From contig JBMFSK010000002.1 in the NCBI GenBank assembly GCA_049967595.1, forward strand, positions 1 to 45,580: 45,580 bases of DNA, in the 5' to 3' direction. Positions 3,836-33,378 of this stretch are shown piece by piece. The translations under genes and the position numbers were made by a program. The stretch's first letter is position 1. Each line of letters opens with the position of its first letter. The DNA is from Thermoplasmata archaeon (GTDB taxonomy: Archaea; Thermoplasmatota; Thermoplasmata; Thermoplasmatales; ARK-15). Under the pieces are notes generated by a model. That model did no database searches, was not told the DNA's origin, and worked only from the letters and a program-made list of their open reading frames with translations.

Positions 3836-4562
3836 CTGCTATTTTTGATATTTCTCCGTACAGAAAAGAGAGAGACCGTAATGTCCAGTAATATTCGTAA
3901 AAACTTTTAGATGTTTTCAGATAATTAAATTCAAATCCATAAGACACATCCATCAATAAAAGATTCTCAGCTGGAACGTTAAATTTGCTCCCCTCAGTGA
4001 ATGGATTCCCTTTTCCATATGCTAGAAATCCTACGATACGTCGTACCATGTTCCACAGAAAGCTCTGACCCCAAATATCTATCACGATAAGATCATGATC
4101 TTTTTCTATCTCTATATTACTTATTTTTCTTAAAGTGTTTCTGTCATCCTTTCTTGAAAAAAGAGAGAAATCATGTTCTCCGATAAATAATTCTGCTTTT
4201 TTTTTCATATCATCCAGATTGAAATTTTGGTCTAAGAGAAAGTATCTGTACCATCTTTCCAAAGCATGCCTAGGTTTGAATCTATCATCAACAACCGTAT
4301 ATGAATAAAAAAGCATGAATGGCAATTTTGAATTTAAAATTCCTGCAATCTTTTTTATTTCATCTTTTGATATCAATCCTATAACATTACCAAGTGCACT
4401 AACATTTCTATCAGTTCTACTTGAAATGTATATCCTGTCTGAAATATTGAATGCCCTTGTTACTTTTAAAATTTCACCTTCAACCGTTTTTCTGTTTTTT
4501 TCCATAGAAAATGCGTCAAACTTCGTTCCATCGTAAGCAAATTTTATCAAATACACGGTCAT
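3807..4562 (-). CDS. truA: tRNA pseudouridine(38-40) synthase TruA/Pus
   Basis: FAYDGTKF N-terminal motif and catalytic-Asp motif SSRTDRNVSALGNV. The 3' end runs 29 nt into the convergent tRNA-Cys gene. Confidence 0.85.
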   Translation of the reverse strand: MTVYLIKFAYDGTKFDAFSMEKNRKTVEGEILKVTRAFNISDRIYISSRTDRNVSALGNVIGLISKDEIKKIAGILNSKLPFMLFYSYTVVDDRFKPRHALERWYRYFLLDQNFNLDDMKKKAELFIGEHDFSLFSRKDDRNTLRKISNIEIEKDHDLIVIDIWGQSFLWNMVRRIVGFLAYGKGNPFTEGSKFNVPAENLLLMDVSYGFEFNYLKTSKSFYEYYWTLRSLSFLYGEISKIAEGRWGIEPH

Positions 4563-30866: not shown

Positions 30867-30966
30867 CCTAATCGATTCTATTTTACTTGAAACTCAATAC
30901 ACATCTTATATATGATTGTTTCGGAAAATTTTTTTAAAATTTATAAATTTTACTTAAAATCATCAG

Positions 30967-31052
30967 CGCCGGGGGGGAGATTTGAACTCCCGCTCCCCTT
31001 TCGGAGAACAGGCTCTCCAGGCCTGCGCCTTGGCCAGCTCGGCTACCCCGGC
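30967..31052 (-). tRNA. tRNA-Ser(GGA)
   Basis: The reverse complement folds as acceptor GCCGGGG/CCCCGGC, anticodon stem CAGGC/GCCTG with loop CTGGAGA, a long variable arm (TTCTCCGAAAGGGGAGC) and T-arm GGGAG-TTCAAAT-CTCCC. Confidence 0.9.
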
Positions 31053-31107: not shown

Positions 31108-31178
31108 ATACAAAATATTACAAATTTTCCATTAAGTATTACAATATTCTTTTGAATAGAATACAACATGTATTACAA
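31108..31178 (+). repeat. five phased ATTACAA/ATACAA direct repeats (candidate operator or centromere-like iterons)
   Basis: ATACAA at 31108 and 31161; ATTACAA at 31117, 31138 and 31172. The ACAA cores are spaced 10, 21, 22 and 12 bp apart, roughly integral helical turns. Confidence 0.4.
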
Positions 31179-31277
31179 AGTATGGCAATAAATTTTAAAA
31201 ATTTTTTATCAAAATATTTAAAATAAACATATTAAAGAATAATTTTATAATAAAATAAAGAAGTAATAATAATTAAT

Positions 31278-31293
31278 TTTTGGTATTTTGGTA
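31278..31293 (+). repeat. tandem TTTTGGTA x2 abutting the putative promoter
   Basis: A perfect 8-nt tandem duplication (31278-31285, 31286-31293), 4 nt upstream of the TATA-like element. Confidence 0.35.
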
Positions 31294-31297
31294 GAAA

Positions 31298-31310
31298 TTT
31301 TTATATATTA
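31298..31310 (+). promoter_or_regulatory. putative TATA box of the RHH/FtsZ-like operon
   Basis: TTTTTATATATTA lies about 60 nt upstream of the ATG at 31366. A strong Shine-Dalgarno AGGAGG sits at 31351-31356, 9 nt before the start. Confidence 0.4.
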
Positions 31311-31365
31311 AAAAAAGCATAACTTCTGTTAGAGCCACTGGTCCTATCCCAGGAGGATATATAAA

Positions 31366-31797
31366 ATGAAAACAGACACAAAGATATCTTTAAGAATCAG
31401 TCAAGTAGAATTGGATAACATAGATGATTTCCTAGTAAGACATCAGGAATTCAAAACAAGATCAGATTTTATCAGATATGCAACAATGAAACAACTTGAA
31501 TTAATGGAAAAGGGTCAACAGTTAGATGAAGAGATTGTTCCAATAAAAATAAATAAAAAGTTTAAGTTAATATTTAGTGATCTTGTAGATATTAATCTAT
31601 TCTCAAGCATTGATGAAGCAGTTAACTTTTTCCTTGAAAGATCAGTTCAGACAAACAAGATGAATGAGGAATTATCAACTTTGATGCAAGGATTTGTATC
31701 ATTGGATAAACTGGTAGATAACTACAAAATTTACCAAGAGGATAGGGCAACCAGCCGGATAAAAAAGGAAAAAGGTGATTTTCGTGATAGAAAATGA
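31366..31797 (+). CDS. ribbon-helix-helix (CopG/CdrS-like) DNA-binding protein with a probable second RHH repeat and a charged tail
   Basis: Residues 5-48 (KISLRISQVELDNIDDFLVRHQEFKTRSDFIRYATMKQLE) fit the strand-helix-(T/S)RS-helix RHH pattern. Residues 57-95 (VPIKINKKFKLIFSDLVDINLFSSIDEAVNFFLERSV) repeat the pattern. The C-terminus is Lys/Asp/Arg-rich. Confidence 0.7.
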   Translation: MKTDTKISLRISQVELDNIDDFLVRHQEFKTRSDFIRYATMKQLELMEKGQQLDEEIVPIKINKKFKLIFSDLVDINLFSSIDEAVNFFLERSVQTNKMNEELSTLMQGFVSLDKLVDNYKIYQEDRATSRIKKEKGDFRDRK

Positions 31798-32587
31798 TAA
31801 AGAAACAATTTTCAAAGGAATGATGAAAGAATGGCTAGATCCGCCTTACATACCAGTGATTGCATTTGGAGGTGCTGGAGCCCATTTCCTGAAATCTTTC
31901 GAAAGATTACTTTCAATATACAAAAATGAAAATGATCCCGAAGATTTCTCAAATATATTTACTATGTATGTCAATACCAAGCAAGAAACATCGATGGATA
32001 CATTTCCATTTTCAAAGACCGTATTGATTACAAATTCTGTTTTAGGTTTACACAGTGATACTAATGGATATGTAGAAGTTGGAGAAAAGATAGTTGAGGA
32101 TAACTTTGATGATATATTCAACACTTATTCTGGAAAAATATCTATTAACCTGAGAAAGGCAGATGCAGTAGTATTAGTGGCAGCTTTTGGTGGTGGAATG
32201 GGAACAGGTGGTATTAAAGAGGCTATAAAATTGATAAGTTTAGATTTCCCATCTTTGCCAATATTTCCCGTGATTGTAATGCCTTTTTCATTCGAAAACA
32301 GAGGTATAAATTTAAAGGATGAAATTGAAGAAGTGTTGAAAGTAGATAAAAAACCAACAGTTATTAAAAATTCAGAATTTTTACATCTTGAAGAAAACAA
32401 AAAAATGAAATTTTCTGATTTACTGGAGGAAATAAATTACAATGTTGCTAAAAAGATTATAGACATAATACTCCATGTAAAAAATGAGAAAGAGAATGTT
32501 TTTAAAGAATTGTATGGAAAAATATTCGAAGAAGAATTCCAAGAGGCGGTATCAAGCCAGTACATAAAAGAAATAAAAACATTTTAA
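31775..32587 (+). CDS. FtsZ/tubulin-superfamily GTPase-domain-only protein (no T7 loop or C-terminal domain)
   Basis: IPVIAFGGAGAHF (G-box 1; compare FtsZ VGxGGxGxN) and VLVAAFGGGMGTGGIKEA (tubulin signature GGGTGTG, nt 32189-32212). Also VIVMPFSFENRG (FtsZ T5 PFxFEG) and a helix H7-like FSDLLEEINYNVAKKIIDIILHV. The protein ends about 35 aa later. The start is ambiguous: GTG 31775 or 31784, ATG 31820 or 31823. Confidence 0.75.
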   Translation: MIFVIENDKETIFKGMMKEWLDPPYIPVIAFGGAGAHFLKSFERLLSIYKNENDPEDFSNIFTMYVNTKQETSMDTFPFSKTVLITNSVLGLHSDTNGYVEVGEKIVEDNFDDIFNTYSGKISINLRKADAVVLVAAFGGGMGTGGIKEAIKLISLDFPSLPIFPVIVMPFSFENRGINLKDEIEEVLKVDKKPTVIKNSEFLHLEENKKMKFSDLLEEINYNVAKKIIDIILHVKNEKENVFKELYGKIFEEEFQEAVSSQYIKEIKTF

Positions 32588-32613
32588 ATTTTATTTTCTT
32601 TTTTGAACCTATT

Positions 32614-33378
32614 ATGAAAATAAATGATCTTGATTTAAACAACTGGAAATCATATGATGATATTTTAACTGATTCTCTATGGATATTTCCAAACAGAGAA
32701 AAGGGGTATACAAGAAATGGTGAATACCACGGAAATTTCATACCACAAATACCAAAACAGGCAATCTTAAGATTCACTAAAAAGGGTGAATGTGTTCTTG
32801 ATACTTTTGCCGGTCTAGGTACATCATTAATTGAGGCAAAGCTGTTATTCCGAGATTCAATAGGTATTGAAATTTCAAAAGAAAATATATTAAAAATTGA
32901 AGAGGTTATTAAAAATACACCAGGGGGAGGTAACCATAGAGTTATCCTTGGAAATGCAATGGATCGTGCTTTATACGGAGGGATGCAAAAAATACAGCTA
33001 GCAATTTTACATCCCCCATATTGGAATGCAATAAAATTCACCGACGATGAAAATGATCTATCAAATGCTAAAGATATAAATGATTTCTTAAATATGTTCT
33101 CTAAAATAGTAGAAAATGTATCATTAGTACTTGAATCGAAAAGATATTTAGTTCTTGTAATAGGGGACATATTCAGAAAAGGAAACATCGTACCTTTAGG
33201 ATTTCTAACAATGAATGAGGTTTTGAAAAAAAATTATACTTTGAAAGGAATTGTTGTAAAAAATATTGAGGAAAACAGAGGAAAAAGAGGAAAATATTCA
33301 TTGTGGCGTTATAGAGCTCTACTTAATGGTTTTTATATATTCAAACATGAATACGTATTCTTTTTCAGAAAAAAATAA
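32614..33378 (+). CDS. SAM-dependent N6-adenine/N4-cytosine-type methyltransferase, motif order I then IV, no adjacent restriction gene
   Basis: HGNFIPQIPKQAILRFTKKGECVLDTFAGLGTSLIEA matches the AdoMet-binding half of the beta-class N4/N6 methylases (H.A.FP..L....I....GD.VLDPF.GSGTT). The catalytic motif LAILHPPYW (nt 33010-33021) follows rather than precedes it. Confidence 0.7.
   Translation: MKINDLDLNNWKSYDDILTDSLWIFPNREKGYTRNGEYHGNFIPQIPKQAILRFTKKGECVLDTFAGLGTSLIEAKLLFRDSIGIEISKENILKIEEVIKNTPGGGNHRVILGNAMDRALYGGMQKIQLAILHPPYWNAIKFTDDENDLSNAKDINDFLNMFSKIVENVSLVLESKRYLVLVIGDIFRKGNIVPLGFLTMNEVLKKNYTLKGIVVKNIEENRGKRGKYSLWRYRALLNGFYIFKHEYVFFFRKK

Follow-up and report, generated by a model that had tools for sequence, protein, structure and literature searches.

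The DNA analyzed here, hereafter the window, is a stretch of 45,580 nt from a Thermoplasmata archaeon (GenBank assembly GCA_049967595.1, contig JBMFSK010000002.1, positions 1 to 45,580 of the forward strand). It contains a two-gene operon, read on the forward strand. The first gene (31366–31797) codes for a 143-aa ribbon-helix-helix (RHH) domain protein and was named long RHH. The second (31784–32587), which it overlaps by 14 nt, codes for a 267-aa single-domain relative of FtsZ and was named short FtsZ. A preliminary description of the locus, made from the nucleotide sequence, had presented the second gene as an FtsZ/tubulin homologue reduced to its nucleotide-binding domain and as a possible natural capper of filaments. 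The observation on short FtsZ was upheld, but the partner gene at 31366–31797 had been overlooked.

The same description placed the open reading frame at 31775–32587. The frame is real and ends at 32587, but it probably starts at the second of two in-frame GTG codons located 9 nt apart (31775 and 31784). Programs that call open reading frames take the first one, which yields a product of 270 aa. All homologues start at the position of the second GTG, with the sequence MI(E/D/N), and an AGGTGA lies 7 nt upstream of 31784. Since both the starts of the homologues and the Shine-Dalgarno spacing favor the GTG at 31784, the 267-aa product is the most likely one.

Family and predicted structure of short FtsZ

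Short FtsZ matched the Pfam profile Tubulin (PF00091) over residues 26–188, with an E value of 4.5e-8 and a score of 34 bits (the cut-off being 33). In Pfam searches with the window protein, no match was obtained to FtsZ_C (PF12327) or Tubulin_2 (PF13809) at E values up to 1, nor to CetZ_C (PF21011). The score against the NCBIfam equivalog for canonical FtsZ (TIGR00065) was 28.2 bits, far below the curated cut-off of 295. A profile of the protein family matched Aquifex FtsZ (2.7e-23) and M. jannaschii FtsZ1 (1.8e-22) in the PDB, and more weakly CetZ (1e-16 to 1e-13), RepX/TubZ (6e-15) and tubulins (~1e-7). All these matches ended between positions 222 and 228 of the 261 in the profile, that is, at the end of helix H7.

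A model predicted with AlphaFold2 from a 78-sequence alignment reached a pLDDT of 91.3 and a pTM of 0.88; it was used in place of that obtained from the single sequence, which was uninformative (pLDDT 48). The model contains an N-terminal helix and strands S1–S6 of a Rossmann-type GTPase domain, followed by one unbroken helix of about 57 residues (residues 210–266, positions 32411–32581; pLDDT 84–98). This helix comprises H7, up to about residue 232, and a tail of 30–35 residues. Foldseek searches of the PDB retrieved FtsZ and CetZ (E ~2e-10, probability 1.0, ~210 columns, query-normalized TM 0.56–0.62), with CetZ2 among the best structural matches; the coverage included the N-terminal domain and H7, and nothing further. 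A search of viral structures (BFVD) retrieved solely full-length phage FtsZ/PhuZ, with weaker scores.

The part of the protein that can be aligned to FtsZ stops at about residue 230–233, and the ~35 residues left extend H7 as a single helix, in the place occupied in FtsZ by the T7 loop and the C-terminal domain. The tail is amphipathic, acidic and aromatic (F240-x-E-L-Y...I-F-E-E-E-F252), with a hydrophobic stripe at residues 236, 240, 243/244, 247/248, 252 and 255/256 flanked by acidic residues; F240 is 85% conserved. Reading of the tail did not reveal the GID motif, the C-terminal peptide through which archaeal FtsZ binds SepF (PMC8178401).

The family profile, the AlphaFold2 model and the Foldseek matches all agree with the alignment by eye given in the preliminary description, in which the protein followed FtsZ through H7 and ended about 35 residues later. 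The lack of a T7 loop and a C-terminal subdomain, also claimed there, is borne out by the profile searches, which detected Tubulin and not FtsZ_C, and by the confident GTPase-domain model, in which the helix continues where the T7 equivalent would begin. The predicted structure confirmed that the open reading frame corresponds to an FtsZ cut down to the nucleotide-binding domain, in which an elongated H7 replaces the T7 loop and the C-terminal domain.

Conservation of short FtsZ and of its RHH partner

About 35 homologues were found in some 28 Thermoplasmatota species, most of them 236–290 aa long and all of them with a common end point. A word-indexed search of 5.8 billion proteins detected eight relatives, seven of them of 258–267 aa and the other of 207 aa, the latter being internally gapped. 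Among 1.84 billion cluster representatives searched exhaustively with a profile, just 12 matched below 1e-10, all of 236–290 aa except for one of 207 aa, one of 357 aa that could be a chimera, and a multidomain protein of 826 aa. A homologue search with a broad alignment was dominated by canonical bacterial FtsZ and added no new members to the family.

A set of 36 family sequences (33 distinct ones from the loci plus three representatives) was aligned with MAFFT to the FtsZ of E. coli, Bacillus and Archaeoglobaceae. In each member, the divergence from FtsZ sets in right at the start of the T7 loop (RPGLxNxDFAD), and the NxDFAD loop was absent from all 36 sequences. The dN/dS values of short FtsZ relative to two relatives were 0.06 and 0.12, with dS being saturated. 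A recent frameshift or truncation, dismissed in the preliminary description on the grounds that the next gene starts 26 nt downstream (the stop codon ends at 32587 and the next ATG is at 32614), is also contradicted by these dN/dS values, by the confident fold and by the presence of the same architecture in more than 30 independent assemblies. In some contigs from metagenome-assembled genomes (MAGs), the RHH gene or that of short FtsZ is broken up by runs of N or X (L015, 1–461; L022, ~4410–4440; L042, ~1990–2090). All these loci entered the presence/absence counts, whereas the short FtsZs of L022 and L042, which contain runs of X, were left out of the conservation counts, which refer to 34 family sequences.

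Positions conserved in at least 80% of the sequences correspond nearly all to the nucleotide loops, namely G29/G30 (T1), N64 (T2), G136–G143 (T4) and P167/F168/E171/R173 (T5). Outside them, conservation extends to a T3-like loop specific to the family, L87-G-x-H90-x-D92-T93-x-G95, and to F240 in the tail. The four motifs quoted in the preliminary description (VIAFGGAG, GGGMGTGG, MPFSFENRG and GLHSDTNGY) are all present in the open reading frame. The T1 loop, or G-box 1 (GGAG, residues 29–32, positions 31868–31879), has G29 in 100% and G30 in 94% of the family. The T3-like loop LGLHSDTNG (32042–32068; consensus LGxHxDTxG) takes the place of the GLGAGxNP of FtsZ, with L87 conserved in 94% of the sequences, G88 in 88%, H90 in 82%, D92 in 94%, T93 in 88% and G95 in 91%. 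The T4 signature GGGMGTGG (32189–32212), with Met for the canonical Thr, is invariant in the core clade, and its glycines are 88–100% conserved family-wide; the canonical GGGTGTG is kept by some DHVE2-type members and by more distant short FtsZs. The T5 or S5-H5 motif PFSFENR (32282–32302) has P167 in 100%, F168 in 94%, E171 in 100% and R173 in 88% of the sequences.

A second tier of short FtsZs, of 255–292 aa, combined strong Tubulin scores with GGGTGTG loops of fully canonical sequence and lacked FtsZ_C. Against the family HMM these proteins scored 106–154 bits, more than every FtsZ bearing FtsZ_C (100.4 for M. jannaschii FtsZ1, 98.0 for the FtsZ2-type P0191 and 85.5 for E. coli FtsZ). Of the two reference sequences from M. 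jannaschii and E. coli used in the alignment and for the HMM scores, the former agrees with the fragment present in the PDB alignment. The named members of two second-tier clusters belong to Thermoplasmatota and are annotated as ‘hypothetical protein’ at NCBI and as ‘cell division protein FtsZ’ at JGI. Two long proteins among the cluster representatives, P0041 (826 aa) and P0072 (731 aa), contain a GTPase domain similar to short FtsZ (165 and 135 bits with the family HMM), after which come 525–595 further residues. In P0038 (357 aa), some 170 N-terminal residues with an HD-like YYHDIGK motif are joined to a DHVE2-type short FtsZ of which just the C-terminal two thirds are present; a chimeric assembly or an error in gene calling may be the cause.

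The long RHH protein consists of an N-terminal RHH domain (residues ~4–47), a conserved helical C-terminal domain, and a basic tail (KKEKGDFRDRK). Eight of nine members of its family matched Pfam RHH_8 (best E value 1.2e-5; 9.4e-4 for the window protein), and the RHH domain of HicB3 also matched it (E 0.017). Its dN/dS was ~0.05. When the RHH protein was used as bait in 185,579 species genomes, 28 loci were identified, which belong to MAGs of Thermoplasmata, Thermoplasmatales or Thermoplasmatota, of the DHVE2 group or of Aciduliprofundum, apart from two labeled Methanobacteriota archaeon at NCBI. A short FtsZ gene was present directly downstream of the RHH gene, overlapping it or less than 45 nt away, at all 27 species loci with room for it. 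The corresponding open reading frames code for 213–290 aa, the two shortest being cut by the contig end or by a run of N.

The pairing persists as the sequences diverge. In a clade in which short FtsZ is 38% identical to that of the window, the RHH gene is the sole conserved neighbor and is itself 56% identical, and the same pair is found in distant members at 23–28% identity. A homologous long RHH gene also lies just upstream of the second-tier short FtsZs with the canonical GGGTGTG, in the three cases out of three in which this could be checked. The RHH gene directly precedes, and is co-oriented with, a gene of the FtsZ family, as in modules of the archaeal cdrS-ftsZ2 type. The translational coupling of the two genes, and the acidic tail of short FtsZ facing the basic tail of long RHH, suggest that the two proteins form a complex. 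A DxxD motif in the C-terminal domain of long RHH was considered as a mimic of T7 and dropped, as it is absent from the partners of the short FtsZs with canonical motifs.

The best explanation for these sequence data is that the gene product is a functional single-domain FtsZ paralog. In full-text searches of the literature, no account came up of a short FtsZ paired with a long RHH protein, and the combination of a single-domain FtsZ and an obligate RHH partner appears to be undescribed and, as judged from the genomes searched, so far limited to Thermoplasmatota.

DNA around the operon

Three 8-mers similar to TGTCATAC were found on the reverse strand upstream of the operon, at 31136–31143 (GTATTACA), 31170–31177 (GTATTACA) and 31180–31187 (GTATGGCA), the last two being 10 nt apart. 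Taken alone, the window does not make them significant (three copies versus 0.7 expected, a number matched by five of 100 shuffles), and repeat finding in its upstream region gave only chance-level pairs; the motif is convincing across loci. When 7-mers were scanned without bias in 32 distinct upstream regions, TATGACA/TGTCATA occurred 27 times versus 1.5 expected, and GTATGAC 18 times versus 0.81. Sites with at most one mismatch to TGTCATAC amounted to 6.7 per kb in the upstream regions and to 0.82 per kb elsewhere, a difference of about eightfold. Each locus contains two to five copies, often as pairs 10 nt apart, and one clade lacks the motif. These sites may be the operators of the RHH protein.

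A conserved block with the sequence TTGGTATTTTGGTAGAAATTTTTATATATT...GCATAACTTC spans 31281–31330 and includes a TATA-like box at 31299–31308; it presumably acts as the promoter of the operon. It is followed by a 5′ leader with a GGAGG at ~31352–31356. The position and sequence of the block hardly vary among L001/L019, L004/L024/L026/L027 and L006/L009/L021/L022, which represent three divergent clades. The whole segment 31281–31356 (GGTATTT..AAATTTTTATATAT..CATAACTTC, followed by a GC-rich leader and GGAGG) has nearly every base in common among these clades, an unusually strong conservation for non-coding DNA in genomes of 30% GC.

Archaeal transcription terminates at oligo-T stretches. The 26-nt spacer downstream of short FtsZ (32588–32613), ATTTTATTTTCTTTTTTGAA, is rich in oligo-T and is likely to be a terminator that would confine the operon to two genes. 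The gene that follows (32614–33378, forward strand) resembles N6_N4 DNA methylases (PF01555, E 5.7e-19). It is present after the cassette in the clade of the window and in that of L006, and not in those of L004 or L009; no restriction enzyme was found among the annotated neighboring genes.

The cassette lies among the genes for eIF6, L31e, L39e, S19e, tRNA-Ser, Dph2, PurN, L44e, S27e and eIF2-alpha, in DNA with a flat GC content of ~0.30. Dph2 stays linked to it even in distant clades (L016/L017). A tblastn search of plasmid and phage collections with the cassette found nothing. The cassette is chromosomal and has a vertical distribution with conserved synteny. Directly upstream of it is a tRNA-Ser(GGA) gene (30966–31052, reverse strand), and two related genomes carry a phage-type integrase gene at the equivalent upstream position (L009/L011, 3390–4619); this flank may be an integration hotspot.

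Possible roles of short FtsZ

L178 of E. coli FtsZ lies in the top interface, and the L178E mutant has been crystallized in an FtsZ-GTP complex (PDB 6unx). In short FtsZ, the residue aligned with L178 is hydrophobic in 100% of the family members, which is compatible with a protein interface being retained at this position. In FtsZ filaments, the growing end exposes T7, the incoming subunit docks by its GTP-bound top face, and mutants in the bottom interface are toxic (PMC8936486); capping through the C-terminal interface amounts to plus-end capping (PMC9897490). Given this docking of the top face onto the T7-exposing end, a subunit left with its top face alone would be expected to block the plus end.

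A mechanism can be proposed in which the RHH protein would bind the TGTCATAC-like sites upstream of the operon, and perhaps sites elsewhere, and would form a complex with short FtsZ. The latter would bind GTP, offer its top (nucleotide) face only, and dock on the growing, T7-exposing end of a canonical FtsZ filament. As its bottom would be a protruding helix, it would add once, accept no further subunit and activate no neighbor's hydrolysis, while the DNA-binding partner would regulate or tether it. Short FtsZ would in this way be a regulated terminator, or a negative regulator of FtsZ assembly, in the control of cell division. We favor this proposal tentatively, with rather less than even confidence. 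It retains from the earlier idea of a filament capper what the kept top face, the family-wide absence of T7 and the C-terminal domain, and the published filament polarity all fit; what that idea missed is the obligate RHH partner. Because this partner is obligate and translationally coupled, a free capper is no more plausible than a regulatory module in which short FtsZ is bound to its partner.

Several observations weigh against a role as a regulated terminator. The clade of the window shows changes on or near the top face, namely NTD to NTK in T2, GLGAGxNP to LGxHxDTxG in T3, Thr to Met in T4, and Tyr for the guanine-contacting Asp in H7; they could mean a poor fit to the bottom face of FtsZ or the loss of specific GTP binding. 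Some Thermoplasmata lack FtsZ, SepF and PRC-barrel proteins (PMC10936438). A capper acting on its own would not obviously need a DNA-binding partner. As for the link to archaeal division modules, the HMM scores do not separate an FtsZ1 from an FtsZ2 origin (100.4 versus 98.0 bits), and the likeness of long RHH to CdrS, the RHH protein of these modules, does not go beyond that expected of a generic RHH domain (hhalign probability 42%).

Alternatively, short FtsZ might stay off filaments and serve as a GTP switch bound to its partner, modulating the DNA binding of the RHH protein and hence transcription, for example of division or cell-cycle genes as in the case of CdrS, which is a transcription factor for division genes (PMC7439475). 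Hydrolysis might then be intrinsic, through the His and Asp of T3, or stimulated by the partner. Such a switch, also below even odds, comes close to the capper in probability. It would account for the obligate pairing, the translational coupling and the conserved operator-like sites upstream, and for the additional conserved domain of the RHH protein and its higher conservation relative to the GTPase (identities of 56% and 38%, respectively, between clades). The conserved T3 loop LGxHxDTxG puts His and Asp where FtsZ has Gly-Ala-Gly beside the gamma-phosphate, and the other changes in the clade of the window (Asp to Lys in T2, Thr to Met in T4, and the guanine-contacting Asp to Tyr in H7) go in the same direction. 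However, the His and Asp are missing in some members (L016/L041/L043 and L029 types), and the less diverged relatives have fully canonical FtsZ loops, a better fit to retained FtsZ–FtsZ contacts; moreover, we know of no monomeric switch with the tubulin/FtsZ fold.

The order of the genes, with the RHH gene first and overlapping reading frames, would also suit a brake on division of the toxin-antitoxin kind, in which an RHH antitoxin with an N-terminal DNA-binding part and a C-terminal neutralizing part would autoregulate the operon and restrain an FtsZ-derived inhibitor until stress. The RHH protein resembles the DNA-binding domain of the HicB3 antitoxin, neighbors of ftsZ2 have been annotated as ParD-type (PMC8178401), and operator-like repeats lie in the promoter of the operon itself. 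Yet the cassette is present in one copy in a conserved housekeeping neighborhood (Dph2, translation genes) across deeply diverged lineages, no plasmid or phage copies were found in the collections searched, and both genes are under strong purifying selection, the would-be antitoxin being the more conserved. This location, lack of mobility and selection are atypical of mobile type II toxin-antitoxin modules; we regard the brake as unlikely. Even less probable is a segregation module like TubR-TubZ or ParR-ParM, with the RHH protein as centromere-binding adaptor and the GTPase as motor. RHH adaptors are typical of partition systems, the adaptor gene comes first and is followed by that of a tubulin-fold NTPase, and the upstream 8-mers are repeated with a 10-nt phasing. 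Without T7 and the C-terminal domain, however, no cytomotive filament of the TubZ or FtsZ type could be formed; the profile is nearer to FtsZ (2.7e-23) than to RepX/TubZ (6e-15), there are only two to five sites, none in one clade, and the cassette, which is chromosomal, was not found in the plasmid and phage collections searched. That short FtsZ could be a non-functional ftsZ remnant, or an artifact of assembly or a frameshift, is suggested by a Pfam score just 1 bit over the threshold and by the divergent signature Thr and T3 loop. This explanation is refuted by the recurrence of the architecture in more than 30 independent assemblies, the dN/dS of 0.06–0.12, the confident fold model, and the intact methyltransferase gene that starts 26 nt downstream, and we give it practically no weight.

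Overall, a conserved ‘half’ FtsZ encoded together with a DNA-binding partner points to a regulator of division and not to a filament builder. To our knowledge, all characterized FtsZ/tubulin proteins form polymers in which the active site is completed by the next subunit, and negative regulators of FtsZ are barely known in Archaea. A natural paralog that keeps the nucleotide face only provides a ready-made test of the control of filament ends, and would be the first archaeal candidate for an FtsZ end-regulator encoded as a protein. The fixed link to an RHH protein connects it with CdrS-FtsZ2, the only known archaeal circuit for division control. Short and confidently modeled, the protein also makes an attractive minimal scaffold on which to study how the FtsZ fold binds nucleotides. 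More speculatively, and in our opinion improbably, the pair could be a self-contained, DNA-bound GTP switch that has abandoned polymerization, that is, a nucleotide sensor on an RHH cell-cycle regulator, or else a chromosome-tethered blocker of FtsZ plus ends, an archaeal counterpart of nucleoid occlusion; the catalytic residues would be supplied in cis by the His/Asp of T3, or by the partner, and not by the T7 of a neighbor. The division machinery of Thermoplasmatota is unusually variable, some members being devoid of SepF and PRC-barrel proteins, or even of FtsZ (PMC10936438).

Comparison with known systems

The closest known arrangement is that of cdrS-ftsZ2. Division is controlled by CdrS (55 aa), whose gene is co-transcribed with ftsZ2, and the gene pair is conserved widely in Archaea (PMC7439475). 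Archaeal ftsZ2 has been described as occurring ‘frequently with parD’ (PMC8178401), and ftsZ2 contexts usually hold an RHH_1 gene (PMC9871819). In an Archaeoglobaceae contig, we found a 78-aa RHH_8/RHH_1 gene 20 nt upstream of a full-length FtsZ; this CdrS-type protein showed 30% identity over 46 aa to the N-terminus of long RHH (hhalign E 2.7e-4). In both arrangements an RHH gene of the RHH_8/RHH_1 families lies immediately upstream of, and co-oriented with, a gene whose nearest profile is FtsZ proper. However, CdrS proteins are 55–78 aa long and contain the RHH domain only, whereas long RHH proteins have ~125–185 aa and an added conserved domain; T7, FtsZ_C and a C-terminal tail are all present in the full-length FtsZ2 and all missing from short FtsZ. 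The genes overlap in the cassette, in contrast to the 20-nt spacing of the Archaeoglobaceae locus. The operon probably derives from the archaeal RHH(cdrS)-ftsZ2 arrangement.

FtsZl1 is a divergent GTPase of the FtsZ superfamily whose C-terminal half is unlike FtsZ and whose polymerization has been doubted (Makarova and Koonin 2010, PMC2875224). As in short FtsZ, the region after H5-H7 and the C-terminal domain do not match FtsZ, and the C-terminal part is helical or coiled-coil. Unlike short FtsZ, which is much shorter, FtsZl1 matches Tubulin_2 and lacks a recognizable T6-H7, and its gene has vWA, OmpA or kinase genes as neighbors instead of RHH, methylase and Dph2 genes. The absence of a Tubulin_2 match in short FtsZ, the clear presence of H6, T6 and H7, and a neighborhood with RHH and not vWA rule out that it is an FtsZl1.

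TubZ and CetZ are also GTPases of the tubulin superfamily, and in tubRZ the gene for the DNA-binding adaptor comes first. They differ from short FtsZ in that they keep T7 and the C-terminal domain and polymerize; TubR is a winged-helix protein, and TubZRC systems are borne by plasmids or phages. The lack of a CetZ_C match and a profile nearer to FtsZ than to CetZ argue against short FtsZ being a CetZ. A type III partition system of the TubZRC kind was rejected on account of the missing C-terminal domain, the RHH partner, the presence of just two to five short sites, and the absence of plasmid or phage matches. With type II toxin-antitoxin systems the operon shares the overlapping genes and the RHH gene in first position, yet its distribution is vertical and chromosomal, with synteny.

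A functional analogy can finally be drawn with the blockers of FtsZ filament ends. The inhibitory part of the chloroplast protein ARC3 is FtsZ-derived. In ARC3, in the end-cappers MciZ, SulA and MipZ, and in the FtsZ mutants of the bottom interface, elongation stops as the growing T7 end is occupied or no usable bottom face is available (PMC8936486, PMC9897490). These inhibitors are point mutants or unrelated small proteins, or, in the case of ARC3, a eukaryotic multidomain protein, whereas short FtsZ is a candidate for a natural prokaryotic paralog of the top half of FtsZ that is coupled to a DNA-binding protein.

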